Positions 37,406 to 51,857 of a DNA stretch of 64,000 nucleotides are shown here, one piece after another (the first letter of the stretch is position 1; each line of letters opens with the position of its first letter). The stretch is from Alphaproteobacteria bacterium (GTDB taxonomy: Bacteria; Pseudomonadota; Alphaproteobacteria; Micavibrionales; Micavibrionaceae): NCBI GenBank assembly GCA_029880245.1, contig JAOUOR010000003.1, forward strand, positions 824 to 64,823, read 5' to 3'. Under the pieces are notes generated by a model, which saw only the letters and a list, made by a program, of their open reading frames with translations, had not been told where the DNA came from and searched no databases. The position numbers and the translations under genes are program-made.

Positions 37406-37852
37406 ATGCCCATGATTGGTTCTTCAACTATAAAAACAGATATAAAGCTAAAGAGAGATTTCAACGCAGCTTGCACAGCCAAGCCTAAAAAGAGCAAGAA
37501 GGACAAGCGCCCTGCTCCCCTGTCTATAAGGCTGTCGAAAGAGCAACGCGCGCGGCTTGAAGAAATGGCCGCCGGGCAAAGCCTGAATTCCTATGTGAAG
37601 ACAGTGCTGTTTCAGGGAGAGAAGAAGCGTATTGCACAACCTATAAAAGATCATGAAAAACTGGCGCTGGCTTTGGGGTTACTTGGTAAGATGGGCACTC
37701 TAAGCACACTCGAAAGCCTTCTGGAAGCCTCAGAAAAAGAGCAAGTTTATATGCCTACTCTTTTGCAGGGTGACATTGCCCAATGCTGCGTGGATATTCG
37801 CTTGATCCGCTGTTACCTGATTAAGGCACTTGGTATAAAAGCAGAAGGATAG
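37406..37852 (+). CDS. MobC-like ribbon-helix-helix relaxosome accessory protein
   Basis: KDKRPAPLSIRLSKEQRARLEEMAAGQSLNSYVKTVLF is the typical MobC/RHH signature. Lies directly upstream (5-nt gap) of the relaxase. Confidence 0.6.
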   Translation: MPMIGSSTIKTDIKLKRDFNAACTAKPKKSKKDKRPAPLSIRLSKEQRARLEEMAAGQSLNSYVKTVLFQGEKKRIAQPIKDHEKLALALGLLGKMGTLSTLESLLEASEKEQVYMPTLLQGDIAQCCVDIRLIRCYLIKALGIKAEG

Positions 37853-37856
37853 AACT

Positions 37857-39158
37857 ATGATCCTTGTCGGTAATCAGCGTGGTGGTGCAAAGAATTTAGC
37901 GCTTCATCTTCTGAAAGAAGAAAATGAAAGAGTGGAATTGCATGAGCTAAAAGGCTTCTGTTCGGATAATCTTATCGGCGCTCTGAATGAGAGCTATGCC
38001 ATAAGCCGGGCTACAAAATGTAAGCAACATCTTTTCTCCCTGTCTTTGAACCCTCCACCGCAGGAACAGGTTTCTACAGAAGATTTTGAACACGCTATTA
38101 ACCGCGTAGAAGAAAAACTCGGCCTAGCTGGACAGCCCCGCGCTATTGTCTTTCATACCAAGGAAAACCGGACTCACTGCCATGCTGTTTGGTCGAGAAT
38201 TAATCTTGAAGAAATGAAGGCCGTCCAGCTTTCCTTCAGCAAACAGAAAATGCAAGAAGTCTCACGCGAACTATACCTAGAGCATGGCTGGCAAATGCCG
38301 CGTGGGCTAGTGAACACCAAAGAAACTGATCCGCGTAATTTCACACTTGCAGAATGGCAGCAAGCCAAACGTCTTGGAAAAGATGCACGAGAGATTAAAG
38401 GGCAGTTTCAGGATGCGTGGGCAATATCAGATAGCAAAGCCGCTTTCTCTCATGCTTTGGAAGAAAGAGGCTATAAACTAGCGCGGGGTGATCGGCGTGG
38501 ATTTGTTGCGGTAGATCATAAAGGTGAAGTTTACCCTGTCTCAAGATGGGCTGGCGTGAAAACCAAGCAGGTCAAAGACCGTTTGGGTGATATTCAGGAG
38601 TTGCCCTCAGTAGCAGACGCCAGAACACAGTTTGCGCAAGAAATGATGCAAAAGATTCAAGAATTCCAAAAGCAGGTTGAGAAAGAAAAGAAAGAAAAAG
38701 CCCGTAAATCTGAGGAAGAACAGCAAAGGCTGGCCGTGCAGCGACAAGCAAAACAGGAGGAGCTAAAGAAACAGCAATTAGAGCGCCAACAGGAAGAAAC
38801 AGAGCAAAGAAAAGCCCGTTTAAGAAAGGGCTTTCTGGGCTTGTGGGATCGTATTCGTGGAGAAAATAAACGTATAGAAAAGCAAAACAGGATGGAAGCT
38901 CTAGAGAAACTCGCCCGCGAGAGGCTGGAAAAAGAAACCCTCCTCCAATATCAACTTACTGAGCAAAAACGCCAGCAAGAAGTGCAGCAACGTGTACAGC
39001 AAAAACTTGATAAGGAAAAACAGGAATTACAGCAAGACACAGAACACTTCCAACAAATGAAATCCCTTTCCGAAGAAGAACAACGCAAAGCCTTCATGGA
39101 AAAAAGACGATCATATGCTCGAAAAGACCGCATAAGAGGGCCGACGATAGAAAGGTAG
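37857..39158 (+). CDS. relaxase/mobilization nuclease (MobA/VirD2 family, MOBQ-like) with Q/E/K-rich coiled-coil tail
   Basis: N-terminal GGAKNLALHLLK...VELHELKGF (catalytic-Tyr-region-like) and the histidine-triad-like FHTKENRTHCHAVWSRI. The C-terminal ~170 aa is low-complexity EKQ-rich. Confidence 0.8.
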   Translation: MILVGNQRGGAKNLALHLLKEENERVELHELKGFCSDNLIGALNESYAISRATKCKQHLFSLSLNPPPQEQVSTEDFEHAINRVEEKLGLAGQPRAIVFHTKENRTHCHAVWSRINLEEMKAVQLSFSKQKMQEVSRELYLEHGWQMPRGLVNTKETDPRNFTLAEWQQAKRLGKDAREIKGQFQDAWAISDSKAAFSHALEERGYKLARGDRRGFVAVDHKGEVYPVSRWAGVKTKQVKDRLGDIQELPSVADARTQFAQEMMQKIQEFQKQVEKEKKEKARKSEEEQQRLAVQRQAKQEELKKQQLERQQEETEQRKARLRKGFLGLWDRIRGENKRIEKQNRMEALEKLARERLEKETLLQYQLTEQKRQQEVQQRVQQKLDKEKQELQQDTEHFQQMKSLSEEEQRKAFMEKRRSYARKDRIRGPTIER

Positions 39159-39178
39159 TAACAGATATATATTTTTTC

Positions 39179-39874
39179 TTATATATTATCCATGCCATAG
39201 CCATTTATCTGGCAGTAATCATATAAGCGCTTCCCTTTTTCATTTATGAAATGCTCATCTGTGACAATCAGATTAATTATTCTGTCTAACCTAAAATTAC
39301 GGAAATCATCACGTTTCTCACACCATGCCAGTAAGAGCCATACAGGATTAAAGAACACTAAGCATAGCGGCCTAACACAACGTTCCGTCTCCTGACCATT
39401 TGCATCTTCATAAGAAAAAAGAAGCTTGTTTTTGCTACGGATTGCTCGGCGAAGTGCTGTAAAATCAATATTAATTTCAACTTTTTCTTTAGAAGAAAAT
39501 GAAAATAAAAATGTTTCTGATATTTCTTGCTGTAAACTTTCTGGTAAAACGCTCGTTAGCTTATCAATTGCTTGGCTGGCAGATTTTGCCAGCTCTTCAT
39601 CTCCCCAGCTTTTCACCATCTGGGCACCAAGCATAAGAGCATCTAGCTCTTCCAACCCGAACATGAGAGGTTGAACCATGTGATCCCGGCTTAGTACATA
39701 GCCCATTCCAGCTTCACCTATAATAGGTACACCTGATACATTCAAATCAGCTATATCTCTGTATATTGTACGAGTGCTCACCTCTAACACATCTGCCAGA
39801 GTTTCTGCTGTAACCACCTGACGGCGTGCCTTTAAGTATTCTACAATTCTAAATAATCTATCTGCCCTGCGCAT
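39179..39874 (-). CDS. YafY-family transcriptional regulator (HTH + WYL domain)
   Basis: MRRADRLFRIVEYLKARRQVVTAETLADVLEVSTRTIYRDIADL (HTH_11-type) followed by a WYL-like domain (LLFSYEDANGQETERCVRPL..FFNPVWLLLAWC). 231 aa. Confidence 0.75.
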   Translation of the reverse strand: MRRADRLFRIVEYLKARRQVVTAETLADVLEVSTRTIYRDIADLNVSGVPIIGEAGMGYVLSRDHMVQPLMFGLEELDALMLGAQMVKSWGDEELAKSASQAIDKLTSVLPESLQQEISETFLFSFSSKEKVEINIDFTALRRAIRSKNKLLFSYEDANGQETERCVRPLCLVFFNPVWLLLAWCEKRDDFRNFRLDRIINLIVTDEHFINEKGKRLYDYCQINGYGMDNI

Positions 39875-39910
39875 AATTTCCTTTATTTTTTATTTTCTTC
39901 TATCATACTG

Positions 39911-39947
39911 ACACACTACTGACAACACGCTGTCAGTAGTAGTGTGT
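39911..39947. promoter_or_regulatory. inverted repeat / candidate operator in the divergent yafY-like / VOC promoter region
   Basis: ACACACTACTGACA-N6-TGTCAGTAGTAGTGTGT. The heptamer ACTGACA occurs twice direct and once inverted. Confidence 0.35.
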
Positions 39948-40011
39948 AAAATACAAAAATCAGCAGCAACCAAGCTGAATTTTTATTAATTGTTATTTTT
40001 GGAGAATATTT

Positions 40012-40464
40012 ATGAGCAAAATACCTGAAGGATATACGTCCATTACACCCTATATTACATTTGATGATACAGCAGGGGCGATTGAATTATACAAAAAAGC
40101 TCTGGGCGCAGAAGTTATTATGAGCATGCCTGCACCTGACGGCAAGATAATGCACGCTGAAATTAAAGTGGGAAATGCGCGTATCATGGTTGGGAGTCCA
40201 TGCCCGGAAAATGGTGGGAAATCAGCAAAAACGCTGGGTGGCTCTCCAGTATCATTTTATGTGTATGTCGAAGATGTACAGGCAGCTTTTGATAAAGCCA
40301 AAGGTGAAGGTATGACCGAGAAGAAAGCACCAGAGGATATGTTCTGGGGTGATCGCATGGGTACAGTTTCTGATCCGTTTGGTATCGACTGGACAATCGC
40401 AGAGCATGTGCGTGATGTGTCGCCGGAGGAAATTGAAGAAGCTATGAAAAAGATGGCTTGCTAG
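40012..40464 (+). CDS. VOC (glyoxalase/bleomycin-resistance fold) family protein, PhnB-like
   Basis: ITPYITFDD.AGAIELYKKALGAE...MHAEIKVGNARIMV...GDRMGTVSDPFGIDWTI is a typical PhnB-like VOC pattern. 150 aa. Confidence 0.7.
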   Translation: MSKIPEGYTSITPYITFDDTAGAIELYKKALGAEVIMSMPAPDGKIMHAEIKVGNARIMVGSPCPENGGKSAKTLGGSPVSFYVYVEDVQAAFDKAKGEGMTEKKAPEDMFWGDRMGTVSDPFGIDWTIAEHVRDVSPEEIEEAMKKMAC

Positions 40465-40472
40465 ATTGAATT

Positions 40473-40802
40473 ATGCCATTTGATGAAGGATTGGCAGAAC
40501 GGTTGGGGGAGATTATACCCAATCGTTCTGACCTTAAAGAGACGAGAATGTTCGGTGGGTTTGGCTATTTGCTAGACGGTAAGATGTGCGTTGGCATTCA
40601 TAAAGATACGCTGATTATCCGTGTAGGAGTTGAGAACGCCGAACAAATATTGCAAGAGCCAAATGTACGTCCTATGGACTTTACAGGTAAAGTTATGAAA
40701 GGTTGGGCAACAATAGAGCCAGAAGCACTGGAAGAAGATTCTGACTTACAACGCTATTGCCAGTTAGCAATTGATTTCGTTGAAACATTGCCGAAGAAAT
40801 AA
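40473..40802 (+). CDS. TfoX N-terminal domain family protein
   Basis: LAERLGEI......ETRMFGGFGYLLDGKMCVGI pattern. 109 aa. Confidence 0.65.
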   Translation: MPFDEGLAERLGEIIPNRSDLKETRMFGGFGYLLDGKMCVGIHKDTLIIRVGVENAEQILQEPNVRPMDFTGKVMKGWATIEPEALEEDSDLQRYCQLAIDFVETLPKK

Positions 40803-41000
40803 AAGTGGGTTGCTCATGCAACATTGCCTCATGGAAAACAGGGGGTGTGCAAACGGAAGGAAAAATCGATAAGGTCGGTGCGGGCGCAAAGCATATGAGC
40901 CTTGGCTTTGTCCATTTTTTCTGAAATGCGCCGAGGGCGCAGCCCTAAGCTAATCTCACATTAGCTCACATAGGAAATCGGATAAAATGAGGCATTATCG

Positions 41001-41080
41001 GGTATTTATAGGTATATTTTTGGGTATTTTAAAGATTTAGCTTGATATATGGATATTTATGGGTATATTTATGGGTATGG
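41001..41080. repeat. phased GG(T)ATWTTT direct repeats upstream of / overlapping the Fic start
   Basis: GGTAT-type units start at 41001, 41011, 41023, (41051 GGATAT), 41062 and 41074, spaced 10-12 bp apart. They are preceded by the perfect palindrome AGCTAAT-N5-ATTAGCT at 40948..40966. Confidence 0.5.
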
Positions 41081-42129
41081 CTATAAATACTAAATCTTTA
41101 GAAATTACCCCTGAAATCCTGTCTCTTATTGCAGAACTGGATGAATTTAAGGGCGCATGGCAGGCGCTTGGAACATTAGCGCCTGAACGTCTTTCCGCTT
41201 TGCGCAGAGTAGCAACTATAGAAAGCATCGGCTCTTCTACACGTATTGAAGGTAGTAAACTTTCTGATAAGGAAGTTGCAGCCCTTCTTTCAAACCTTGA
41301 AATCAAAAAGTTTGAGACTCGTGATGAACAAGAAGTGGCGGGCTATGCCGAAGTCATGGAAACAGTCTTTGCACATGCAGATTCCATTACCCTAACAGAA
41401 AATCATATTAAGCAACTTCATCGTGACTTACTGGTTTACAGCACTAAGGATGAACGACATCGTGGTTCTTATAAGACCAATACAAACCATGTAAGCGCCT
41501 TTGATGAAGACGGAAATGAAATTGGTATAGTCTTTGAAACCGCTACACCATTTGAAACACCGCGCCTAATGACAGAACTGGTAGAATGGACAAACCTGTC
41601 TTTTGATGATCGTACACTTCACCCATTACTTACAATTGCTATTTTCATTGTTGTATTTTTGGAAATTCACCCCTTTCAGGATGGCAACGGCAGGCTTTCA
41701 CGTGTTCTAACCACCCTGTTATTACTGCGTAGTGGCTATAACCATGTCCCCTATAGCTCGCTTGAAAGTGTCATCGAGCAAACGAAAGAAGCATACTATA
41801 TTGCCCTACGCAAAACCCAAGGCACCATTCGCACGGATGAACCAGAATGGAATGCTTGGGTAGTGTATTTTCTGAAAGCCCTAAAAAAGCAAAAAGAGCG
41901 GTTAGAAAAGAAAATTGAGCGCGAACGGATTGTCATAGGCACATTGCCAGAACTCTCTGTAAAAATCCTTGAATTAGCCAAAGAACATGGTCGTCTTACC
42001 ATCGGTCAGATTGTTGATCTGACCGATGCAAACAGGAATACGGTAAAGAAACATCTGCAAACACTAGTATCAGCAAACCACTTAAAACAATACGGTACTG
42101 GTAAAGGTACATGGTATGAGCGGGTTTAA
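41059..42129 (+). CDS. Fic-family protein (class II, intramolecular inhibitory motif) with C-terminal winged-helix domain
   Basis: Fic motif HPFQDGNGRLSR (nt 41668..41703). The N-terminal STRIEG fits the (S/T)xxxE(G/N) inhibitory helix motif. C-terminal HTH-like LTIGQIVDLTDANRNTVKKHLQTLVSANHL. The true start may be ATG 41071 or 41077. Confidence 0.85.
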   Translation: MGIFMGMAINTKSLEITPEILSLIAELDEFKGAWQALGTLAPERLSALRRVATIESIGSSTRIEGSKLSDKEVAALLSNLEIKKFETRDEQEVAGYAEVMETVFAHADSITLTENHIKQLHRDLLVYSTKDERHRGSYKTNTNHVSAFDEDGNEIGIVFETATPFETPRLMTELVEWTNLSFDDRTLHPLLTIAIFIVVFLEIHPFQDGNGRLSRVLTTLLLLRSGYNHVPYSSLESVIEQTKEAYYIALRKTQGTIRTDEPEWNAWVVYFLKALKKQKERLEKKIERERIVIGTLPELSVKILELAKEHGRLTIGQIVDLTDANRNTVKKHLQTLVSANHLKQYGTGKGTWYERV

Positions 42130-42151
42130 ATGTAATGGGGGTAAATAATTA

Positions 42152-44785
42152 ATGAAAACAGAATCAGTTCATAAAGAGCCAAACACTTATACAGTAAATA
42201 TTCCTGTTCAAAAAATTCTAAAAACTTCCCATGAAGTTATGCCGTACCTTGAGCATATTATACAGATTGGAGACAATAACCGTACAATTTTTGGCTTTTT
42301 GCCTAGAGACGCATATAAACAGAAAATAGAGCAAGAAAAATTATGGGTTTCTACAGATGATGCTGGCAACTACCTTGGTCACTTAATGTATGGAGGTAAA
42401 TATAGTGAAATAAGAATTTATCAAATTTATTCTTCTCCAGAAAATCGAACGCAAGGCGTTGCCTCTTCTCTTATTCAAGAAATCGTCAAATATGGTGAGC
42501 AGGTATCATGCTTAAACCTTAGAGCCGATGTAGCCAGCGATCTCACTGCGGCAATGCGTTTTTATCAAGGGCAAGGTTTCTATGCACTAAAACCTAGAGA
42601 TAAACAAAATACAACTGGCAGAGAAGTTTTAATTTTCTACAAAAGACTTGCAACACCCAGCTTGCTGCCACCTGAAAACTTAGACTTGGATGTGATTTCA
42701 AATAAAACAAACGACATCACTGAAAGCTATGTAATTGACCTAAATATTTTTCTTTCTTTAACAAAAAATCGTACAGAAAAAGAACTGATCACAAATATTA
42801 TGAAAGCAGCATTGTCAGGTGAATTTACATTATTTGTAACGCCTGAATTTAAAGAAGAACTTTTGCGGAATAAAAGAAACGAAGACGCTCTACTAGACCT
42901 TGCTGAAAGCACTCTGCCTGTCTTACCTTCTATACTAGATAATGAACTTGTTCCATTAGAAAAAGAAATCCACGAAATTGTTTTTCCAAACAGAACAAGT
43001 ACTCGCAAAAAATCTTCTAATGATGCGTCTGATATACGGCACTTAGCTTACTGTGTAAAACATAAAAAGTCTGCTTTTCTGACCGAAGAAAAATCCATAT
43101 TAAACGCTAAGAGGCAGTTACATGAGAAGTACAGTTTAATGGTGCTTTCTCCTGCCGATTTTAAGATAGAGTATCTAGGAACCATTGAAAACCCTGCACT
43201 CTCTGTCCCACTACAAAATGAGAATAACCGAATACAATTGCTGGATAATCCAAGTTATTCTGATATAGACGATTTCTTAGGAAGCCTAGAAAACAATCAC
43301 GAAAACATCGAAACTTTCTTCAAGAAAGATGTTGCCAGAGGAGTAAATGAAAAACGAGTGGCCTTGGTCAATGACTCGATATTTGCAGCTTATAAGGCAC
43401 AAACAAAAGGTAATAAGCATGATCTCATAGAGGGAATGCTCATAACAGATAGCACAGAATTTAAAAGTAGAGATGCTGTTTTAGAACATTTATTAGAGTG
43501 TTTTTTGAGGCTTGTGACACACTCACAGGCTAAAAAAATAACTTTATATATAATGCAAGACGCTTTTGATCTAGAAAATCTATGTCTAAAGCGTGGGTTT
43601 CAGAGAGCCGGAGAAACAGGAAATGGTTTGACGAAATTGATCAAAGCTTCGGCTCCCCAATTAATAACAAAAGGCAATTGGAAAGATTTTAGAAATTCTT
43701 TTTACGATCAAACAGGTATCTCTTTTCCTGCACTTATTCCTAATTTTTCTATTAAGAGCCAAGGTGACGCATATATCCATGCCGTAAAAAATGAACGTGG
43801 GCACGAACTTCCATTATACAAATTGGAATCGTTTATTTCCCCCTCTGTGGTTCTCTTACCGGAGAGAAATGCCGTTCTAATTTCAATTCGTCCTGCATTT
43901 GCTTCTGACTTGTTGTCACGTGATGATAGTATGTTGCCGTTTCCAACGCGTGAAGAAGCGCTGATTAGGACAGAAAAAGTTTACTATAAAACTCCTTCTC
44001 ATAAGAACTTTTTCAGAAAAGGAATGCCTGTAGTATTCTATGAGTCAAAAAGTGGACGAGGGGTTATAGGCAGTGCTCGCATTGTATCAACAGAAATTTG
44101 TAGCGTAGATACAGCCCTGAAAACATATAGAAAGTATGGGGTGCTGACAAAACAAGAGCTTGACGGATATTCAGATAAGAGTGGGAATGTACAAGTTATT
44201 ATATTTGATAATTTTATAGAGTTTCCAAACCCTCTAACTTTAAAAGAATTAAAGAATCTAGGATGTGCAAAAGCCAATATGGTAGGCCCCGAAAAACTAT
44301 CTTTCGATCAACTATATAACATACTCCATTTGGGTACGAGCATGCCTGTGAAGGATGTGATTATATCTATACAACCTAATTATGTTGCAAAAATTCTCAG
44401 TGGAAAGAAAACTATAGAACTCAGGAAGAAACCATTTCCAGCAAATGGAGGCGTTCGCATTTGGATTTATACTACTAAACCTAGTAGTTCTATTGAAGCA
44501 ACAGCCTATGTCACCGAATATGAGAAAGACACACCTGAAAACATATGGAAGAAATATAGAAATAAATGTGGCATCTCAAAGAAAGATTTTGATGAGTATT
44601 ATAATGGGTGCAAAGAAGCATACGCATTAACCTTATCAAACGCCAAGAAACTAAGCAGAAAAATTAAATTGACAGAATTAAAAGAGTTAAATGAAGGCTT
44701 CACGCCACCACAATACTTCCGATATTTGAAGCACAATTCTAGCCTCTGCAACCAATTGCTAGATTGTTTGCCTGATAAAAAATAG
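42152..44785 (+). CDS. 877-aa multidomain protein: GNAT - PIN-like - GNAT-like - ASCH-like - ASCH (domain calls by eye)
   Basis: GGGGG Shine-Dalgarno 9 nt upstream and a 22-nt gap after Fic. aa ~85-165: GNAT motif A (IYSSPENRTQGVASSLIQEIVKYG..FYQGQGF). aa ~190-337: PIN-like acidic pattern (SYVIDLNIF; TPEFKEEL; DASDIRHLAYCVKHKKSAFLTEEKS). aa ~355-490: second GNAT-like fold (..LENLCLKRGFQRAG). aa ~573-705: ASCH-like (AVLISIRPAFASDLL .. GMPVVFYESKSGRGVIGSARIV). aa ~735-860: canonical ASCH (VIISIQPNYVAKILSGKKTIELRKK .. VRIWIYTTKP..IEATAYV). Confidence 0.6.
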   Translation: MKTESVHKEPNTYTVNIPVQKILKTSHEVMPYLEHIIQIGDNNRTIFGFLPRDAYKQKIEQEKLWVSTDDAGNYLGHLMYGGKYSEIRIYQIYSSPENRTQGVASSLIQEIVKYGEQVSCLNLRADVASDLTAAMRFYQGQGFYALKPRDKQNTTGREVLIFYKRLATPSLLPPENLDLDVISNKTNDITESYVIDLNIFLSLTKNRTEKELITNIMKAALSGEFTLFVTPEFKEELLRNKRNEDALLDLAESTLPVLPSILDNELVPLEKEIHEIVFPNRTSTRKKSSNDASDIRHLAYCVKHKKSAFLTEEKSILNAKRQLHEKYSLMVLSPADFKIEYLGTIENPALSVPLQNENNRIQLLDNPSYSDIDDFLGSLENNHENIETFFKKDVARGVNEKRVALVNDSIFAAYKAQTKGNKHDLIEGMLITDSTEFKSRDAVLEHLLECFLRLVTHSQAKKITLYIMQDAFDLENLCLKRGFQRAGETGNGLTKLIKASAPQLITKGNWKDFRNSFYDQTGISFPALIPNFSIKSQGDAYIHAVKNERGHELPLYKLESFISPSVVLLPERNAVLISIRPAFASDLLSRDDSMLPFPTREEALIRTEKVYYKTPSHKNFFRKGMPVVFYESKSGRGVIGSARIVSTEICSVDTALKTYRKYGVLTKQELDGYSDKSGNVQVIIFDNFIEFPNPLTLKELKNLGCAKANMVGPEKLSFDQLYNILHLGTSMPVKDVIISIQPNYVAKILSGKKTIELRKKPFPANGGVRIWIYTTKPSSSIEATAYVTEYEKDTPENIWKKYRNKCGISKKDFDEYYNGCKEAYALTLSNAKKLSRKIKLTELKELNEGFTPPQYFRYLKHNSSLCNQLLDCLPDKK

Positions 44786-44962
44786 TATACATATCGTCAA
44801 AAGCCGAAAGGGATGCAACGGGAAACGCGCAGCGGGTTTCCCTTGCCGAACAAGCGGAGCGTAGTGAGCCAAGATGCGTTGGTTGGTAGTACCAACGCAC
44901 ATCTTGCGTAAGTCCTTAAAATAAAAATATGACCCTCAAAGTTAAAATAGAAGGTTCATATA

Positions 44963-45388
44963 TTGCTAATCAGAGCGCAAAGCAAACGCCTACCCCTTTT
45001 CAGGCAACATCTAATTACCTCAATTGAATCAAAGGATTATCAGTTAAGTTTGCATAATATTCTTGTAAAACAGTATGTTATTCAGATGAATGATAGCCTT
45101 ACAAAAAAATGGAAAACAACCACCCGACCAGATGGCCCTACCGGATATAAACGGAAGGGAACTTTCCGTGATATTTCACTTTCCTACTATCTCCCTGAAT
45201 ATGTAGATGATTTTGATTCTATATGTATAAGCAAAGGAGTAAAACGAAGTGAACTCATGAAAATTATGGACGATAATAATATCGTTAAACCCTTAGATGC
45301 TAAATCATTTTTAGATTCAAAAGATCTGGAGCAAAGTCCGGGTGCAAAAAAATGGATTGAAACATTTTGTTCAATCGACCCTAAATAA
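44963..45388 (+). CDS. hypothetical protein with RHH (CopG/Arc)-like C-terminal half
   Basis: TTG start with AGAAGG 8 nt upstream; alternative ATG at 45086. KRKGTFRDISLSYYLPEYVDDFDSICISKGVKRSELMKIMDD fits a strand-helix-helix pattern. The call is tentative. Confidence 0.35.
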   Translation: MLIRAQSKRLPLFRQHLITSIESKDYQLSLHNILVKQYVIQMNDSLTKKWKTTTRPDGPTGYKRKGTFRDISLSYYLPEYVDDFDSICISKGVKRSELMKIMDDNNIVKPLDAKSFLDSKDLEQSPGAKKWIETFCSIDPK

Positions 45389-46184
45389 ATTCATCCCCCA
45401 TAGCTTTTATTGCTCTATCTACAATATCGTCAAAACATGCATACCAGACGCGAATAAAATCAGCACGATTTAGACCAATTCTATCTACCCTGTGACTACC
45501 AAAATGATATATTGCCCTAATAAGGCTAATCGTTAATGCGTAATCAAAATGTGACCTAAGGCTTCTATTTGTTAATCTGTGATTAGCAAAATAAAATTTT
45601 AAGTCCCAATATATGCTCGGAATACTGGTAAAATGAAACATGACTGTTTCATGCAGATTTCCTTGAAATTTGCAAAATCTGCATTCGTTTTTTTTATTTA
45701 AATAATTTCCAGTATCAGTAAAACTCCGATGTACTGGCAGTATAAAAGACCTGCCTTCTTCAAACATTTCTATTATTTTTAGTTCTTCAGATACATATTC
45801 CCTCGGCTTTTTACCAAACCTGCATAATGTTAAACATTCCAGCAAAGTTTCCAGACTGATTCCTTCTGGCCGCTGTTCATACTTTATATCAGGATCAAGT
45901 AACTCTATTGTCTGGAACATAGATACATATATTTTCATATAATGAACTTCTGCACCTTCTAAGAGACGGTACAAAAATTTTCTATAGTCATATTTGTAAG
46001 GAAGTTGACTTCTGATTTTTGCTATATTTCTGTTCACTGTCTGGGGTGGTAAATTAGTTAATTCAGAAATTTGTTTAGTGTTATGACCTGCAAGCGATAA
46101 ATACATCATCTCCCTATACAAGGAACTATCTTCCAAACGAGCATTTTTAAAGGCTAGATTCTTTGGTTTATATTTTCGAACCAT
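45381..46184 (-). CDS. hypothetical protein with N-terminal HTH (sigma-70 region 4 / LuxR-like) segment
   Basis: YLSLAGHNTKQISELTNLPPQTVNRNIAKIRSQL looks like a 3-helix HTH. The remaining ~200 aa is unrecognised (contains CRFCKF). Convergent 8-nt overlap with 44963..45388. Very AT-rich. Confidence 0.45.
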   Translation of the reverse strand: MVRKYKPKNLAFKNARLEDSSLYREMMYLSLAGHNTKQISELTNLPPQTVNRNIAKIRSQLPYKYDYRKFLYRLLEGAEVHYMKIYVSMFQTIELLDPDIKYEQRPEGISLETLLECLTLCRFGKKPREYVSEELKIIEMFEEGRSFILPVHRSFTDTGNYLNKKNECRFCKFQGNLHETVMFHFTSIPSIYWDLKFYFANHRLTNRSLRSHFDYALTISLIRAIYHFGSHRVDRIGLNRADFIRVWYACFDDIVDRAIKAMGDEFI

Positions 46185-46405
46185 AGGGCAAAGGTAAAAT
46201 AGCGTTCTTAAGCGTTATTAATGCGGGGCACATAACGTGATTAAGAAATATAATACTTTTAATTAATATGTAAATAGGCTGTATTAAAAACGTCATCGGG
46301 AAATACAGAAATTCCTATAATTCAGTTGGATATAGCTTTCTGAGAACCCCTTAGCTTTGCCCGGATTTAGACAGTATTTGAAACATAAGAAAAGGAGAAT
46401 GTCAT

Positions 46406-46906
46406 ATGAATAAAAACAATAATACACGATGCACAAACTGCCTTTTATCAAGCTCATGCATGTATACCCGTTCTTGTCTGGTAACGGATGCAGAACTAAA
46501 GAACCCTGAATTTGTAAGGGATGTGCGGAATTTTGCCTGTGCTATGGGGCTACAGCCTTCGGACTGGAAGCCTTTTCTTACGGATGAGCTTGAAGCCTAT
46601 CCCGGTAAGATCATTAATCGGCATTACCAAGAGGTTGAGCTTAATCTTGAACTGTTTGAACTGGATGATGAAACTATTCTTCATTCAGATAGTAAGACAC
46701 TAGCAAATGCCAACGATAATGTTTGCGAATGGTTTGAGACTTGGTGCTGCACGCCCTGCCCGGACGGTAAACGCTCCCGCCTTAATGAGGAAACAAAAGA
46801 AAAATTCCGCATTGTGGCTACAATATTAAGGGCACGTAATCCCGGTGCAGCGCAATTCTGGGGGCTGAAAGGCAAGGCCGCAAACGACAATAATCCGCAG
46901 GACTAA
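46406..46906 (+). CDS. hypothetical Cys-rich protein
   Basis: 166-aa ORF with a GGAG Shine-Dalgarno (AAAAGGAGAATGTCATATG). N-terminal CxxC-like cluster (CTNCLLSSSCMYTRSC) and C-terminal WCCTPCP. Confidence 0.5.
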   Translation: MNKNNNTRCTNCLLSSSCMYTRSCLVTDAELKNPEFVRDVRNFACAMGLQPSDWKPFLTDELEAYPGKIINRHYQEVELNLELFELDDETILHSDSKTLANANDNVCEWFETWCCTPCPDGKRSRLNEETKEKFRIVATILRARNPGAAQFWGLKGKAANDNNPQD

Positions 46907-46924
46907 TCATCATTTTTTTCATTC

Positions 46925-46958
46925 AAAAAGTGGCTCCGAAACGTGAGCCACTTTTTTT
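46925..46958 (+). terminator. rho-independent terminator
   Basis: Perfect stem GTGGCTC/GAGCCAC (46930-46936 / 46945-46951), 8-nt loop, then T7. The A-run upstream makes it potentially bidirectional. Confidence 0.65.
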
Positions 46959-47042
46959 ATTGCCCTTATCCCCCTGAGCCGGGTCTGCACTGCCTTACTA
47001 TGAAAACCTGAGAGCAACGCAAACCAAAAGGAGGAACGCCTT

Positions 47043-47339
47043 ATGTCAGGTTTACAAAAGCACAAGCAGGCCGGACAGTCCATTTTCATGAGTTCCATGA
47101 CAGGACTGGCCAATACTCTGGCAGTCGTGGCCACGTTCTTGGGAACAGGACCATTTTATTCTGCCAGTAAGGATTGGGTGCGTGATTTTGCCCTTTCCCA
47201 GTACGGCCCTGCCAGTGCTGATTTCGTAACGATGATATGGGGCGTTATTTGCGCGTGCCTCATTTTTTTCACTGCAAGAGCTTCAATCTCGACAGCGCTC
47301 ATGTTTGGCGCCGTGGCAGTGATGGTTCGTTTCTTATAA
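47043..47339 (+). CDS. small multi-pass membrane protein
   Basis: 98 aa with AGGAGG Shine-Dalgarno. About three hydrophobic helices (LANTLAVVATFLGTGPF, FVTMIWGVICACLIFFTA, ISTALMFGAVAVMVRFL). Confidence 0.5.
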   Translation: MSGLQKHKQAGQSIFMSSMTGLANTLAVVATFLGTGPFYSASKDWVRDFALSQYGPASADFVTMIWGVICACLIFFTARASISTALMFGAVAVMVRFL

Positions 47340-47361
47340 TTTAATTTGAAGGAGTATTCCT

Positions 47362-47514
47362 ATGTCTAAAAAACAATATGAGAAAATCGGTGGCGGTAGC
47401 TATGGTGTTTACAAGGAAAAGAAAAATTCTTTCCTCAAAGATATTGGCGAATTTCTAGCCGGATGCGTCTTTATTTTTGTCATTCTGGCCATAATTGGCG
47501 CCTTCATAAACTAA
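47362..47514 (+). CDS. small single-pass membrane protein (50 aa)
   Basis: My own translation: MSKKQYEKIGGGSYGVYKEKKNSFLKDIGEFLAGCVFIFVILAIIGAFIN, with GGAG 7 nt upstream. Below the track cut-off. Confidence 0.35.
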   Translation: MSKKQYEKIGGGSYGVYKEKKNSFLKDIGEFLAGCVFIFVILAIIGAFIN

Positions 47515-47531
47515 CATTCATTCTACTACAG

Positions 47532-47570
47532 AAAATGCCGGGAAGCCTCACACACTTCCCGGCATTTTCT
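47532..47570 (+). terminator. hairpin/terminator immediately upstream of the coupling-protein gene
   Basis: 11-bp stem ATGCCGGGAAG/CTTCCCGGCAT (47535-47545 / 47555-47565) followed by TTTTCTT. Confidence 0.5.
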
Positions 47571-47584
47571 TATGAGATTCCCTT

Positions 47585-49051
47585 ATGATTGATAATGAGA
47601 ATAACCGTTTTGGCTCGGCCAGCTTTGCCAGCGAACAGGATGTTCGCAAAGCAGGTATGTTTGACCAACATTCCAACTCCCTGCTGATTGGCTTCTATGG
47701 CCATAGGCCAGTCTGGTATTCCGGCATGGGCGGGTTACTGCTAGTGGCCGGAGCACGTGGCGGCAAGCTGCGTGATGTTCTCGCCTACAACATCTGTCGG
47801 GGGATTTGCCTGTCTTCTATGGTCATTCTGGACATGAAGGGGGAACTGGCCGTAATCTCCCAAGGGCAAGAACTTGACGGCAAAATCCCTATATACTGGA
47901 ATCCGTGCGGACTCCACGGTATGCCACAGCACCGGATCAACCCGGTTGATTATATCCGCATTGATAGCCCATCCCTTGTTTCCGATACAAAAGTCTTTTG
48001 CGAGAACAAGATTGCTGTTTCGGGCAGTCCTAATGCCGATTACTTTGAACGAAGAGCACAAGAGTTTCTCGAAGCTATGACCCTCACGCTTGCAGAGAAG
48101 AACGGAACGCTGACCCTGCCGGATTTATATCGTGTCATAAATTTAATACCCGGCGGGACGGATGAATGGCTCAACTTCGCCTATGATATGTCACGTAGCT
48201 GCTTCCCGGTAGCTATGCGTATAGAAGAAGAAATTGCATCCTCCCGTAATAATCCAACCAACGGGTTTCAGGGAATTTTAGGGGAACTCTTCAAAGGCTT
48301 TGCCTGTTTGAGCGACCCACAATTACTTTCCTCAGTTTCCCCGCCATATGACTTTTCATTTTCTCAGCCTTGTGAAGGTGATCAGAAGTATCAGGCTTAC
48401 TTCATGCCTAGGGCAGAATTTGTTGAAAGCTGGTCTCCTGTCCTCAAGGATTTATTTGTCGCGGCCATGATCTATAAATCCAGAAAGCCCCAAGCGCCGC
48501 AGCAAACATGGGTGATTGATGAAGCGGCCCAACTCAATAAATTCCCGCTCATTGTAAAACTCTACACTTACGGAGCCGGGATAGGTATTCGTCCGTGGGC
48601 AGTGTTTCAGTCCACCAAACAAATGAAGTCATTAGGACACGAGGCAGATAATATCATTACCTCCAGTGCAGCACTACGCAGTTATTTCGCTGTTAGAGAT
48701 ATAGAAACGGCAAGTAGCGTTTCACGGATGATTGGCGCACAAACACTTGTCTATGAAGACGAACACGCCCATGCACGGGCGCGTCATGCTAAACGGCAAG
48801 CTGTACAGGCCTTTCTCTCTGGTGATGATCCACTAAGTGCAGGGCTAAATTACGCCCATCACGCCCGCGAAGCCGAAACACCACATATGCAGCACCGCCA
48901 GCTTCGTAACCCCGATGAAGTGCTGAATACTCCGGCGGACAAACAATATATATTTGCTGACGGTCTGCCGGGAGTCTTATACGGAGATCGTAAACCTTAC
49001 TACCAGCAGCGCTTCATGAAAGGCCGCTATTCTGATAATCCATATTATTAA
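47585..49051 (+). CDS. type IV coupling protein (VirD4/TraG family) lacking the usual N-terminal transmembrane region
   Basis: RFGSASFASEQDVRKAGMF (compare the GSARWA..AGL motif), the P-loop-like LLVAGARGGK, and the Walker B-like WVIDEAAQL. 488 aa and starts directly with the soluble domain. Confidence 0.8.
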   Translation: MIDNENNRFGSASFASEQDVRKAGMFDQHSNSLLIGFYGHRPVWYSGMGGLLLVAGARGGKLRDVLAYNICRGICLSSMVILDMKGELAVISQGQELDGKIPIYWNPCGLHGMPQHRINPVDYIRIDSPSLVSDTKVFCENKIAVSGSPNADYFERRAQEFLEAMTLTLAEKNGTLTLPDLYRVINLIPGGTDEWLNFAYDMSRSCFPVAMRIEEEIASSRNNPTNGFQGILGELFKGFACLSDPQLLSSVSPPYDFSFSQPCEGDQKYQAYFMPRAEFVESWSPVLKDLFVAAMIYKSRKPQAPQQTWVIDEAAQLNKFPLIVKLYTYGAGIGIRPWAVFQSTKQMKSLGHEADNIITSSAALRSYFAVRDIETASSVSRMIGAQTLVYEDEHAHARARHAKRQAVQAFLSGDDPLSAGLNYAHHAREAETPHMQHRQLRNPDEVLNTPADKQYIFADGLPGVLYGDRKPYYQQRFMKGRYSDNPYY

Positions 49052-49392
49052 TTTGAGGTAGCCAGTAATTCCAATATCTGAGCAGATAATTCTCTAATTT
49101 TTTCCATCTCAGGATCATTGATAATTTCTATTGGATATTTATCAACGGTATCTATTTTTTTAATTTGCTTATCCAGTTTCTTAAATTTTAGACAAACTTC
49201 TTTTGGAAAAAATTCTTCCAGTTTGTTTTTCTCCATATAATAATCTAAGGCAGAGTCATCGAAAACATAACATATTGCTTCATCAAAACTGTGTATCTCA
49301 TCTTTTGAGCCATCTGTCCACAGCACGGCCTGACTATCCTTGTCCAAAGATAATTCCTTTAAACCGTCTAATAAAATTTCTTTTTCTACCAT
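49048..49392 (-). CDS. hypothetical acidic protein
   Basis: 114-aa AT-rich ORF, convergent with and overlapping the coupling-protein stop by 4 nt. No motif recognised. Confidence 0.4.
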   Translation of the reverse strand: MVEKEILLDGLKELSLDKDSQAVLWTDGSKDEIHSFDEAICYVFDDSALDYYMEKNKLEEFFPKEVCLKFKKLDKQIKKIDTVDKYPIEIINDPEMEKIRELSAQILELLATSN

Positions 49393-49524
49393 TAAAAATC
49401 TCCTATCTATCCCAACCTGACCCTTACTATATAATATCTAGCATATTTTCAATATTTATCCCCCTGAGCTGCTTTCATCTCCCTGTAAAATGGTACTACC
49501 ACCACCAACCAAAGGAGATAATCC

Positions 49525-49815
49525 ATGACCAGCAAAACCCCACAAGAAACCTTACGTGATGCCAACCTTAAAGCCAGTATATGGCGCAATGAAAGTGAGC
49601 AAGGTTCTTACTTCACTACTACACTTGCTCGTACCTATAAGGATGAGCAAGGAAATTACCGCGATACAAACAGCTTCGGACAGAATGATTTGCTGCGTCT
49701 CGCAGAACTTTCACGCAGCGCATACAACCGCGTCAATGAGATCAAACGTGAAGAATTCCGTGATAAGCGGCAAGCACCATCAAGGGGCAGAAATTCCCAT
49801 GAGCGAAACCGATAA
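49525..49815 (+). CDS. hypothetical protein (conjugative-element-associated, by context)
   Basis: 96 aa with a GGAG Shine-Dalgarno. TLRDANLKASIWRNESEQGSYFTTTLARTYKDEQGNYRDTNSF. I vaguely recall similar small proteins in alphaproteobacterial ICEs but cannot name the family. Confidence 0.45.
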   Translation: MTSKTPQETLRDANLKASIWRNESEQGSYFTTTLARTYKDEQGNYRDTNSFGQNDLLRLAELSRSAYNRVNEIKREEFRDKRQAPSRGRNSHERNR

Positions 49816-49832
49816 TTTTTTACGCGCACCCC

Positions 49833-49861
49833 TTGACTCACATGCGGACTCACAATAACAA
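49833..49861 (+). promoter_or_regulatory. possible promoter for the 49936 ORF / recombinase operon
   Basis: TTGACT-N17-TAACAA(T). The spacer contains a direct repeat GACTCACA-N4-GACTCACA. Confidence 0.3.
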
Positions 49862-49935
49862 TGTTCCCTCTTTGTTCTCATTAACAGGAAAAAGGATGCG
49901 TATGGATAAACACTAAAATTATAAGGAAAAGCGGT

Positions 49936-50298
49936 ATGAACAATAAAAAACGGCCAGATACAATAGAGGATAAATTACCGAGGAGAAAACCCGGACAAAA
50001 GCGCCTGCCACTTCCAACACTGACGCTTGATATTGAGCGCTATGAGGAATATCTCGAAGATTGCGATATGACCGAAGCGCAGCAGGAAGAATTCCTGCAA
50101 ACCCTTTGGGATATTATCGTGTGCTTCGTTGACATGGGCTTTGGCATTGAGCCAACCCAAGCGGCCTGTGGAGAACTCATCAAAAAGAGCGCGCATGATC
50201 CCTCAAATGAGCTAGACTCTAAGGGTCAATCACTCACAGAAGGTTTTAGAAAAGTTGCTGCATCTAAAGATGCGCAGCAGGAAGGAGTCACATCATGA
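49936..50298 (+). CDS. hypothetical protein translationally coupled to the serine recombinase
   Basis: 120 aa. Its TGA overlaps the recombinase ATG (ATGA at 50295-50298). By position only, it is a possible recombination accessory/directionality factor. Confidence 0.45.
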   Translation: MNNKKRPDTIEDKLPRRKPGQKRLPLPTLTLDIERYEEYLEDCDMTEAQQEEFLQTLWDIIVCFVDMGFGIEPTQAACGELIKKSAHDPSNELDSKGQSLTEGFRKVAASKDAQQEGVTS

Positions 50299-51857
50299 TG
50301 GAATTTGAAACCCAGCACCATAATTTTACCAACGCTGTTATTTATACGAGAGTGTCATCCAAGAAACAGGTTAAGTCCGGTGACGGCCTCAGATCACAAG
50401 AAACCCGCTGTCTTTCTTACGCCGGGTACAAAGGCTATGCAGTGGTTAAAACTTTCTCCGATGATCTTTCCGGGAGTTCTGCCCAGCGCCCCGGTTTGAA
50501 TGACATGCTCAAATTCCTGAAGAAGAACAGGAAAGACGGCTATGTTATCCTTATTGACGACATTAGCCGCATAGCCCGGAACATCCGTACCCACCTAGAT
50601 TTGCGCGATATTATAAATGAAATTGGCGCGGTGCTGGAAAGCCCCTCAATTGAATTTAAGAATGATCCTGATAGTCTATTTTTCGAGAACATGCAGGCGG
50701 TGAATGCTGATTTCTTCCGCCGTAAGAATGCACAGCAAACAAGAAACCGGAGAATAGCCCGGCTCTCAAATGGCTATTGGTGCTTTCAAAAACCTGCTGG
50801 CTATAAGCATGAAACCGTTAAAGGGCATGGGAAGCTGCTTGTTCGTGACGATCCGCTGGCCAGTATAATTCAGGAAGGTCTTGAAGGGTTTGCCAGCGGC
50901 AGGTTCCAGACACAGGCAGAACTGACACGTTTCTTTCAGGAGTTTCCTGAATTCCCTAAAGACCGCTATGGCAACGTTCGTGACCAGCGCGTGAATGAGA
51001 TAATAAACAGGGTTATTTATGCTGGTTATATTGAGGTTCCCAAATATAATATTCCCTTGCAAAAAGCCAAGCATGAAGCCCTGATCAGCTTTGAAACCTT
51101 CCAGAAAAATCAGGAGCGCCTGAAAGAGAATGCCAAAGTGCCTGCCCGTAAGAACCTCAAAGTTGATTTCCCATTGCGTGGGGCGGTTGTTTGTAAATGC
51201 GGAACACCATTCACCGCCTGCTGGTCGAAGGGAAAGAATAAAAAATATCCTTACTACCTGTGCCACAATCGTGACTGTGACCTGCACAGGAAATCCGTGC
51301 CCCGTGATCAGATGCAAAGTGAATTTGAGGAGTTACTCAAAGAACTCCGTCCTTCTGCCTCCATGTTCAATACAATGAGAGCCATGTTCAAAGATATTTG
51401 GGAATACCGCCTGAATAATACAAAGCTCTTGGCCAAGTCCGCTGAAAAAGAACTGGTCAACATTGAGCGTAAGACGGAGCAATTACTGGATCGCCTTGTT
51501 GAAACAAACAGCATGGCGGCAATTTCTGCGTATGAAGGTAAGATCGAAAAACTGGAAAAGGAGAAGATTGTTTTGAGAGAAAAAATAGAAAATTGCGGGA
51601 AACCGTGCCATGCCTTTGAGGAAATGTTCGAACACGCCCTTACATTCCTGTCAAACCCCTATAAATTATGGGTTTCTGACAATCTGACCTTGCGCCGTTT
51701 AGTGCTCAAACTGGCCTTTTCTGACAGGCTCACATACATCAAAAATCAAGGGTTTCGAACACCGGATTTAGCCTTTCCTTTCAAGGCATTAGAGGGTCTG
51801 AAATACGGTAAAAATAGTATGGCGCGCCCGAGAGGATTCGAACCCCTGACCTCCTGA
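50295..51857 (+). CDS. large serine recombinase (resolvase/invertase N-domain + recombinase domain + zinc-ribbon-like + coiled coil)
   Basis: AVIYTRVSSKKQ (catalytic Ser), DDISRIAR, the Cys cluster CKCG..C....C.NRDC, and a C-terminal coiled coil. The last 12 residues (MARPRGFEPLTS) and the stop codon are encoded by the 3' part of the tRNA-Arg gene on the opposite strand. Confidence 0.9.
   Translation: MMEFETQHHNFTNAVIYTRVSSKKQVKSGDGLRSQETRCLSYAGYKGYAVVKTFSDDLSGSSAQRPGLNDMLKFLKKNRKDGYVILIDDISRIARNIRTHLDLRDIINEIGAVLESPSIEFKNDPDSLFFENMQAVNADFFRRKNAQQTRNRRIARLSNGYWCFQKPAGYKHETVKGHGKLLVRDDPLASIIQEGLEGFASGRFQTQAELTRFFQEFPEFPKDRYGNVRDQRVNEIINRVIYAGYIEVPKYNIPLQKAKHEALISFETFQKNQERLKENAKVPARKNLKVDFPLRGAVVCKCGTPFTACWSKGKNKKYPYYLCHNRDCDLHRKSVPRDQMQSEFEELLKELRPSASMFNTMRAMFKDIWEYRLNNTKLLAKSAEKELVNIERKTEQLLDRLVETNSMAAISAYEGKIEKLEKEKIVLREKIENCGKPCHAFEEMFEHALTFLSNPYKLWVSDNLTLRRLVLKLAFSDRLTYIKNQGFRTPDLAFPFKALEGLKYGKNSMARPRGFEPLTS

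Follow-up and report, generated by a model that had tools for sequence, protein, structure and literature searches.

Proteins of the (PIN)-GNAT-EVE type were described by Iyer et al. (2013 NAR 41:7635), who proposed a role in DNA base acetylation, as cited in PMC7641849. The operons that encode these proteins nearly always encode an ASCH protein, often encode an AAA_17 ATPase, and associate with restriction-modification (RM) and other defense loci (PMC7641849). Bell et al. (2020 BMC Biol 18:159; PMC7641849) classed the operons as toxin-antitoxin (TA)-like, and none of the proteins had been characterized experimentally as of that study; our literature search found no later experimental work on (PIN)-GNAT-EVE or PDC-M11, the matching entry in PADLOC. 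The PDC entries, 145 in number, are untested candidates that were found within BREX, DISARM, and type I RM loci (Payne et al. 2024 bioRxiv, PADLOC-DB v2). Here, we analyzed a 64,000-nucleotide (nt) stretch of DNA from an alphaproteobacterium of the Micavibrionaceae (the window; contig JAOUOR010000003.1), in which a Fic gene is followed by a gene for an 877-amino-acid (aa) protein.

An earlier reading made from the letters of the window (the sequence-only reading) took the architecture of the 877-aa protein for an undescribed one. The protein turned out to be a variant of the (PIN)-GNAT-EVE plus ASCH operons, and it matched the PADLOC models PDC-M11A and PDC-M11B. We are highly confident that it is independent of Fic and that it is a fused PDC-M11-like variant. 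With less assurance, we consider it probable that two independent defense-type cargo genes adjoin in an integrative mobilizable element and that a single chain, the 877-aa protein, makes up a complete system.

Domain organization of the 877-aa protein

The gene and the domains of its product were assigned as follows.

42152..44785, + strand: gene for the 877-aa five-domain protein, a single-chain fusion of A (GNAT, PIN, degenerate GNAT, PUA) and B (ASCH)
42203..42667, + strand: domain 1, N-terminal GNAT, aa 18-172, acetyl-CoA motif A intact (R99-x-x-G102-x-A104)
42713..43177, + strand: domain 2, PIN nuclease, aa 188-342, acidic residues D196, E232, D294, and E313
43205..43657, + strand: domain 3, degenerate GNAT fold, aa 352-502, without the R/Q-x-x-G-x-G/A loop
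43658..44344, + strand: domain 4, ASCH-like PUA fold, aa 503-731, conserved Y611, F629, Y630, S632, and R643
44348..44782, + strand: domain 5, ASCH, aa 733-877, PDC-M11B equivalent; a gene of its own in most relatives

The sequence-only reading had strung the protein together as GNAT-PIN-GNAT-ASCH-ASCH. Pfam, PADLOC, AlphaFold, Foldseek, and profile comparisons agreed with that order, and structure prediction, Foldseek searches, and profile comparisons of the separate domains backed all five assignments. An AlphaFold2 model built with 30 homologues (pLDDT 80, pTM 0.69) showed five compact domains (aa 18-172, 188-342, 352-502, 503-731, and 733-877); residues 345-731 were also modeled separately (pLDDT 77). 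The peptide motifs quoted in the sequence-only reading were all located where it had placed them. The first ~17 residues of the open reading frame (ORF) were missing from most homologues and disordered in the model. The gene is likely to start at 42152 because the next in-frame start, at codon 30, would cut off conserved residues.

Domain 1 matched Acetyltransf_1 (Pfam, 1e-8, aa 57-143), as did 67 of 67 family members, and carried the motif RTQGVASSL at aa 99-107. Its closest structures were Ard1, RimI, and Naa-type acetyltransferases (Foldseek, template modeling [TM] score 0.74-0.85), and the closest GNATs were Ard1, RimI, YpeA, and generic ones. A connection to the aminoacyl-tRNA acetylation of TacT/AtaT-type toxins had been raised for this domain, and we found no support for it. 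A TacT- or AtaT-like identity was rejected because neither protein ranked in the top 60 by sequence or in the top 50 by structure.

Domain 2 matched PIN_3 (5e-6, aa 193-313), just at the Pfam gathering score, and scans of 67+ family members gave 54 + 15 matches to PIN_3 or PIN. Specifically, VIDLNIF was located at aa 194-200, EFKEE at 232-236, DIRHLAY at 294-300, and FLTEEKS at 309-315. The aspartate that had been singled out earlier does exist as a conserved acidic residue, but it is D196 rather than D195.

Domain 3 had the full GNAT order of strands and helices in the AlphaFold model and aligned in register with domain 1 (hhalign, P = 5e-4). Its matches to GNAT structures were weak (Foldseek, E about 1e-4, TM 0.5-0.6), and the position of the acetyl-CoA glycine loop read KSRDAVLEHLL. 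Thus, the GNAT fold was present, but the domain is probably not catalytically competent.

Domain 4, which occupies the position of the "EVE" of PIN-GNAT-EVE proteins, matched DUF365 of the PUA clan (Pfam, 1.6e-7, aa 625-676). Its best structural match was the Zymomonas protein ZmASCH (Foldseek, TM 0.72-0.78), with 2kku at 1e-3, and it was homologous to domain 5 (hhalign, 85%, E = 7e-6), Y630 being aligned with Y773. We considered and rejected a Pfam EVE identity for domain 4, as EVE matched just 3 of 67 members and the structure favored ASCH. Domain 5 matched ASCH (Pfam, 2.4e-4, aa 739-794), carried the motif ISIQPNYVAKILSGKKTIELRKK at aa 738-760, and resembled ZmASCH both by sequence (5e-20) and by structure (TM 0.87-0.92).

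A fused form of a conserved two-gene operon

A word-indexed search returned ~30 full-length relatives of the 877-aa protein (848-900 aa, 45-58% identity), and those that were named belonged to the Alphaproteobacteria. A profile search of 1.84 billion representatives returned 477 proteins or clusters at E <= 1e-30. Of the 150 best profile matches, about 145 were ~725-aa proteins that covered profile positions 4-716 and thus had domains 1-4 but no terminal ASCH, and fused ~860-aa forms made up about 5 clusters only.

The missing domain was found next door. We examined 80 metagenomic short-form loci, 74 of which had enough downstream sequence to be evaluated, and an ASCH ORF lay directly downstream in all 74. 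(Genome loci were searched with one family alignment, and metagenome loci with the alignment of a tight subset.) In three distant relatives (L012, L018, and L019), the ASCH ORF was likewise separate and overlapped or abutted the stop codon of the ~715-aa gene; the junctions between A and B read ATGCCTGA, ATGAATGA, or TAA followed one base on by a TTG start. The linkage between A and B is obligatory, strictly conserved, and translationally coupled.

In a neighbor-joining tree of the shared body, 34 of 34 fused sequences formed one clade with no short forms inside, although one of them (P0037) was weakly placed. Because the ASCH is a separate downstream gene in the short forms and the fused forms make up one clade, the window protein is, judging from these sequences, a Rosetta-stone fusion of two genes that otherwise form a strictly conserved operon. 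Occurrences of the fused form are rare and patchy. The search of about 185,000 species-level genomes yielded only six loci (four fused and two two-gene), which came from Nitrospinales, Hyphomicrobiales, Hyphomicrobium, another alphaproteobacterium, Thermoanaerobaculia, and an unclassified member of the Pseudomonadota. A search of BFVD for a phage-encoded counterpart of the full architecture gave single-domain matches only.

The residues expected to matter for activity were retained to different degrees in 144 short-form representatives. In the PIN domain, D196, N198, E232, E236, D294, H297, and T311 were 100% conserved, and the PUA pocket residues Y611, F629, Y630, S632, and R643 exceeded 94%. 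Motif A of the N-terminal GNAT was somewhat more variable (Q91 98%, R99 88%, and G102 76%), with R99 and G102 invariant in the fused clade. Domain 3 was barely conserved and had no R/Q-x-x-G-x-G/A loop.

One apparent departure from the common architecture was set aside. P0034 (680 aa) seemingly had no N-terminal GNAT, but its first residues (MDLNIF) fall within the first PIN strand, and it shares 88% identity with a full-length member. Its start is probably miscalled.

Comparison with PDC-M11, (PIN)-GNAT-EVE operons, and ZmASCH

As in PDC-M11, the order in the window family was PIN, GNAT fold, and C-terminal PUA-superfamily domain, with an obligatory ASCH, and the genes lay beside or inside RM and other defense loci. 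PDC-M11A positions 4-198 matched aa 194-406 (from the PIN to the middle part) and positions 323-492 matched aa 567-728 in domain 4 (1.7e-14), and PDC-M11B matched domain 5 (6e-37). PDC-M11A also matched 60 of 67 diverse family members (best 1e-15).

Taken part by part, the PIN domain is shared (PIN_3 and fully conserved acidic residues), except that the window PIN is preceded by another GNAT. The central GNAT is present as a fold with weak matches; it is poorly conserved and lacks the glycine loop of classical members. The C-terminal EVE/PUA domain corresponds to aa 503-731, which is nearer to ASCH/DUF365 than to Pfam EVE. The operonic ASCH is a separate gene in the two-gene loci and is fused in the window clade. 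No AAA_17-type ATPase, which is frequent but not obligatory in classical operons, was found beside the window gene or as a recurrent neighbor, and the RM genes beside window homologues were type IIG, MmeI-like, and type III-like rather than type I.

The window family also differs from (PIN)-GNAT-EVE proteins in other respects. A further GNAT of ~170 aa, whose acetyl-CoA motif is intact, stands at the N terminus; the internal GNAT is undetectable by sequence and has lost the glycine loop; and the ASCH is downstream and, in the window clade, part of the same chain. Two classical operons illustrate the contrast. A Methylobacterium plasmid operon encodes an HTH-ASCH protein, a 511-aa PIN-GNAT-EVE protein, and then an AAA ATPase, and Pseudomonas sp. 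CIP-10 plasmid NZ_CP087161.1 (L105:4377-7009) encodes a P-loop ATPase, a GNAT-EVE protein, an ASCH protein, and a separate 198-aa GNAT. The PIN, PUA, and ASCH profiles of the window family detected both operons, but the profiles of the N-terminal GNAT and the middle domain did not. The classical internal GNATs keep a glycine loop (KRGVKLGELL and HGTKLGERFL). The 198-aa Pseudomonas GNAT, with its canonical QGSGAG motif, parallels the window N-terminal GNAT in trans; the two showed no detectable kinship.

The closest solved relative of the ASCH domains is ZmASCH (PDB 5GUQ/5GUS/5Y6B/5Y6C; Kim et al. 2017), which is 31% identical to aa 733-862 and superimposes on them with a TM of up to 0.92. ZmASCH binds single-stranded (ss) RNA and ssDNA and weakly cleaves ssRNA only; its functional residues are Tyr47, which is essential, Lys53, and Ser128 (PMC5615036). 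The GKKT(I/V)E(L/F)R motif and Tyr47 are shared, the latter aligning with the invariant Y773 and also with Y630. Unlike the window domains, ZmASCH is a free-standing protein of 149 aa, and Lys53 and Ser128 are replaced by Ser and Tyr in the window and the base-pocket Trp15 by Gln741.

These comparisons point to the window family as a distinct branch of (PIN)-GNAT-EVE plus ASCH/PDC-M11, because its N-terminal GNAT is an intact addition, its internal GNAT has decayed, its reader is ASCH-like rather than clearly EVE-like, an ATPase is lacking, and, in the window clade, the ASCH is fused. What is new relative to known systems is the ~725-aa branch (GNAT, PIN, degenerate GNAT, and PUA) with a coupled ASCH, its rare fused clade, and the loss of the acetyl-CoA loop from the internal GNAT alongside an added N-terminal GNAT that keeps it.

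Proposed function of the 877-aa protein and alternative readings

We favor a conflict or defense function for the 877-aa protein. The protein would have arisen by fusion of gene A (GNAT, PIN, decayed GNAT, and ASCH-like PUA) and gene B (small ASCH). Its two ASCH/PUA-fold domains may act as readers of single-stranded or modified nucleic acid, most likely RNA such as tRNA, because both keep the tyrosine that ZmASCH needs for nucleic-acid binding. The PIN domain would be the effector, a Mg-dependent nuclease acting on the substrate that the readers hold. Acetyl-CoA-dependent activity, lost from the internal GNAT, would come from the N-terminal GNAT and would serve either to mark the substrate or to gate the nuclease. 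As a result, growth would be arrested, or an invading phage or plasmid would be restricted.

The combination of an acetyl writer, a modified-base reader, and a nuclease, which the sequence-only reading had put forward, would be a reasonable logic. PIN domains of the PIN_3/VapC type are RNases. Because of this and because ZmASCH cleaves only ssRNA, RNA is the most plausible PIN substrate, an assignment that we make tentatively. It is a more doubtful proposition that the protein is an autonomous immune effector in which the two ASCH readers would capture a specific and possibly modified RNA, such as tRNA, the PIN domain would cleave it, and the new GNAT would have functionally replaced the decayed one, acetylating the substrate or responding to acetyl-CoA by gating the nuclease.

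Alternatively, the protein could be a modification-dependent, restriction-like system whose PUA folds read modified bases in phage DNA and whose PIN or GNAT acts on DNA. PIN_3 and VapC-like PIN domains are overwhelmingly RNases, however, the closest solved ASCH cuts no DNA, and both PUA folds are of the ASCH type rather than EVE or SRA. We therefore regard this reading as unlikely, even though RM systems adjoin homologues of the 877-aa protein, classical operons include HTH-ASCH fusions, type IV restriction enzymes commonly sense modification through PUA-superfamily domains (PMC7641849, PMC7897488), and the proposal of Iyer et al. (2013), as it is cited in PMC7641849, concerned DNA bases.

Less likely still is a TA pair, in which gene A (GNAT/PIN) would be the toxin and the small ASCH the antitoxin, perhaps by reversing N-acetylation as YqfB does on N4-acetylcytidine. 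In favor of such a pair, the two genes are translationally coupled in a strictly conserved operon, the GNAT and PIN folds are classical among toxins, and the operons have been classed as TA-like (PMC7641849). TacT/AtaT (GNAT) and VapC (PIN) toxins have the same folds, and the acidic residue set of VapC is shared with the window PIN. In contrast to type II TA toxins, the window domains form part of a five-domain chain with nucleic-acid reader modules, and the upstream gene is not that of a small cognate antitoxin but a 356-aa Fic gene, with other genes in this place elsewhere. Type II antitoxin genes usually precede the toxin gene, but the ASCH follows A. The ASCH domain has a ZmASCH-type GKKTIELR motif, the Glu of which stands at what we take to be the position of the catalytic Thr of YqfB. 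Finally, a stable covalent fusion across a whole clade misfits a labile-antitoxin mechanism. The natural fusion argues that the ASCH is a stoichiometric, integral subunit and not a labile antitoxin or a mere transcription regulator.

The Fic gene and its adjacency to the 877-aa gene

The features of the Fic gene and of the spacer that follows it were assigned as follows.

41059..42129, + strand: Fic-wHTH (winged helix-turn-helix) gene, 356 aa, a predicted SoFic-type class II Fic AMPylase from Pfam, PADLOC, and PDB matches
41236..41253, + strand: STRIEG inhibitory-helix motif, aa 60-65, fits (S/T)xxxE(G/N)
41668..41703, + strand: Fic active-site motif HPFQDGNGRLSR (His204), aa 204-215
41947..42120, + strand: C-terminal winged helix-turn-helix, aa ~297-354
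42130..42151, + strand: intergenic spacer, 22 nt, with a G-rich Shine-Dalgarno-like GGGGG at 42137-42141

Much of what the sequence-only reading had said about this gene was borne out. The two ORFs exist on the same strand as described, the AMPylation-type Fic motif is intact and its coordinates were exact, the N-terminal STRIEG segment is present, and the C-terminal HTH was recovered in a Pfam scan, in which several HTH families matched the tail at 4e-4 to 1e-2 and SoFic-like_C matched weakly. The motif (S/T)xxxE(G/N) marks the auto-inhibitory helix of class II Fic proteins. The Fic domain itself scored E = 1.6e-17 (PF02661), and the PADLOC SoFic model covered nearly the full length of the protein (4.5e-50, aa 20-350). 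In the PDB, the best match was 8uqu (1.5e-34), and SoFic structures matched at 3e-10. The protein appears to belong to the SoFic architecture class without being an orthologue of SoFic, because its 78 bits against the NCBIfam SoFic equivalog model fall far below the 550-bit cut-off.

Where the Fic gene begins is uncertain: given that some near-identical homologues have a length of 350 aa, the ATG at 41059, 41071, or 41077 could be the start. The best promoter-like site of the region, TTGATA-16-TATATT (10 of 12 matches, 41042-41069), overlaps the first ATG, which suggests that the real start is 41071 or 41077, in agreement with the 350-aa homologues.

SoFic (Millman et al. 2022; Shewanella 3EQX/3ZCN; EcSoFic, Wu et al. 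2025) is likewise a class II protein with an inhibitory helix, and the window Fic shares its HxFx(D/E)GNGRxxR motif and C-terminal wHTH. Its similarity to Shewanella SoFic is just 3e-10 and confined to the C-terminal half, and it belongs to a highly conserved family of its own that travels with mobile elements, with at least 8,000 matches at E <= 1e-30 and >100 clusters at 77-92% identity from several phyla. SoFic-type proteins are single-gene abortive-infection AMPylases, and EcSoFic has a downstream partner gene for a 47-aa antitoxin, AS1 (PMC12249575). Downstream of the window Fic, there is no space for a small AS1-like gene. We picture the window Fic as a putative self-inhibited SoFic-type AMPylase with a wHTH tail, the product of a very common gene that travels with mobile elements. 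Abortive infection via AMPylation is a candidate function by analogy with other members, for which the phenotype is established.

The sequence-only reading had joined the two genes in one toxin or defense module, in which, for example, Fic would be the sensor or regulator and the big protein the effector or antidote. Several features of the window fit such a module. The genes are on the same strand, the 22-nt gap and the GGGGG (10 nt before the ATG of the 877-aa gene) are as had been described, a scan of the spacer region for terminators found no terminator-like site on the + strand, both proteins are toxin-type enzymes, and EcSoFic offers the precedent of a downstream partner. Counts in the promoter and terminator scans did not exceed those in shuffled sequence, so the operon structure was inferred from spacing alone. 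The two genes are probably co-transcribed in the window, and their adjacency is local.

The comparative evidence went the other way. No Fic gene was present at any other locus examined, neither in the 12 other fused-form contexts nor at the 80 two-gene loci, and a tally of 99 homologue loci contained none; Fic was therefore not a conserved neighbor. The genes found upstream of 877-aa homologues varied instead (MmeI-type RM, UvrD, T5orf172, and SIR2). The Fic family, at its size of at least 8,000, contrasts with about 30 relatives of the 877-aa protein, and the GC content of Fic (41.6%) equals that of the element and differs by 5.5 points from that of the 877-aa gene (36.1%). Close Fic relatives also occurred without the big gene. 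A 91%-identical Fic in a Hyphomicrobiales metagenome-assembled genome (JACKKO010000001.1, L100:6058-9126) lies in a decayed relative of the window element, flanked by a NikA homologue (6e-38), a relaxase fragment, and two serine-recombinase fragments; Fic thus appears to be long-standing cargo of the element family. Elsewhere, an 87%-identical copy adjoins ArdA. From the lack of Fic at other loci, the family sizes, the GC contents, and the varied upstream genes, we conclude that the adjacency is accidental. A conserved Fic module is largely refuted, and we consider it very improbable.

One further adjacency concerned Fic. An 87%-identical homologue is followed by a large RTX/cadherin-repeat protein (L101:8323-11463), and a 792-aa VWA/RTX-repeat protein is encoded between tRNA-Lys and the element in the window (34748-37126). 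This may be coincidence or a recurrent association.

The mobile element and the settings of homologues

The sequence-only reading had placed both genes in an integrative mobilizable element. The element genes, and the features around them, supported this placement.

37406..51896, no strand: integrative mobilizable element, approximate extent, ~14.5 kb, ends not fixed
37406-37852: NikA-like gene
37857-39158: MobA/VirD2 relaxase gene
39179-39874, - strand: HTH-WYL regulator gene
44963-46906: three orphan ORFs of 141 aa, 267 aa (- strand, weak sigma-70 region-4-like HTH), and 166 aa
47585-49051: T4CP, a VirD4-type coupling protein of only 488 aa
50295-51857: large serine recombinase gene, the last ~38 nt of which are shared with the 3' end of tRNA-Arg(ACG), encoded on the other strand
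51820-51896, - strand: tRNA-Arg

The presence of a relaxase, a coupling protein, and a recombinase and the lack of mating-pair genes in the element identify it as an integrative mobilizable one. It is flanked by housekeeping genes (uvrA, gyrA, and tRNA-Lys on the left; mazG, GDPD, and a symporter on the right). No direct repeat of >=12 nt was found between 33.4-41.1 kb and 51.7-52.1 kb, which was not unexpected because the recombinase is of the serine type. The three orphan ORFs matched no Pfam family and had no homologue in any retrieved locus; they lie in the lowest-GC stretch of the window (33.5% at 45-46 kb). Just upstream of Fic, at 39179-40802, the WYL regulator gene is divergent from VOC/glyoxalase and TfoX_N genes. 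WYL regulators often control defense or mobile-element cargo.

Homologues of the 877-aa protein did sit among defense and mobile genes. The neighbors of fused homologues included type IIG, MmeI-like, and type III-like RM genes, as well as Shedu SduA_C, SIR2, reverse transcriptase, UvrD helicase, HNH_5, integrase, ArdC, and Prim-Pol genes. Two loci (L012 and L015) carried relatives of the genes of the window element. Among the four nearest genes of the two-gene family were some defense genes (MzaA, IetA, HmaC, methyltransferases, and HNH_5) and integrases.

Individual loci showed further arrangements. Upstream of the two-gene P0032 (L012:5542-7984) are genes for adenosine deaminase, a Ham1-like ITPase, and SIR2_2, with 16 nt between the SIR2_2 gene and that of P0032; genes for a NikA-like protein, a relaxase, and a serine recombinase follow in this locus, which makes it another mobilizable element with the module. 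At the loci of two fused-form homologues (P0017 and P0020; L008:1324-4148 and L009:5170-7994), genes for a ~205-230-aa protein and a ~710-aa UvrD-type helicase lie directly upstream and end 3-6 nt before the gene. The UvrD association may reflect shared ancestry because P0017 and P0020 are closely related. No conserved third gene was found beside the module, UvrD being limited to one sub-lineage and HNH_5 to about 8 of 66 loci. The HNH_5 endonuclease gene (~270-300 aa) lies directly beside the module in both fused and two-gene forms (L007:10557-11453 and L019:6083-6898, and ~6 of 53 dereplicated metagenome loci, such as L021:8670-9479 and L024:8666-9475). This gene may be an accessory that is optional, or it may be a neighbor independent of the module.

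A housekeeping RNA-modification or processing enzyme with no conflict role, such as a tRNA or rRNA acetyltransferase with a PUA RNA-binding module, would account for the PUA and ASCH domains (typical of RNA-modification enzymes), for the resemblance of the N-terminal GNAT to RimI and Nat-type enzymes, and for the housekeeping surroundings of some loci, but it is highly improbable given a fused form scattered across phyla in only 4 of about 185,000 species genomes, a low-GC gene in a mobile element, recurrent defense and mobile neighbors, and a fully conserved PIN nuclease site, which is unusual for a modification enzyme.

Weighing the proposed reading

Several points count against the proposal that the 877-aa protein is an RNA-directed defense protein that is independent of Fic. 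No member of the window family, of (PIN)-GNAT-EVE, or of PDC-M11 yet has an experimental test, and the PDC systems are explicitly candidates. The weak PDC-M11A matches (1e-10 to 1e-15) make the kinship with the catalogued system a distant one. Of the three functional residues of ZmASCH, the terminal ASCH keeps Tyr47 but not Lys53 or Ser128. On the question of substrate, PIN-fold nucleases can act on DNA, and DNA was the substrate proposed by Iyer et al. (2013), as cited in PMC7641849. With 22 nt and no terminator between the two genes, co-transcription is likely, and local cross-talk between Fic and the 877-aa protein is therefore possible. One fused homologue lies among housekeeping genes near dnaA, and most immediate neighbors in the two-gene family are housekeeping or unannotated genes, recognized defense genes being a minority. 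For these last two reasons, the defense association of the GNAT-PIN/ASCH family is suggestive.

Implications for the (PIN)-GNAT-EVE/PDC-M11 class

The separation of the two genes averts a false lead: Fic should stay out of models of the GNAT-PIN/ASCH system. For the family itself, the absolute ASCH linkage (74 of 74 loci), with translational coupling, provides a handle on the role of the ASCH partner. The natural fusion in one chain speaks for a 1:1 complex and against the ASCH being an antitoxin, and it offers a one-gene construct. An extra GNAT with an intact motif together with a probably inactive internal GNAT, in a previously unseparated branch of 477 clusters, yields a prediction as to which of the two acetyltransferase sites is the important one. 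Comparative genomics has pointed to (PIN)-GNAT-EVE/ASCH operons since 2013, and PADLOC lists them. If the reading as an autonomous immune effector is true, the compact single chain described here would be the easiest route to the mechanism of the whole (PIN)-GNAT-EVE/PDC-M11 class.

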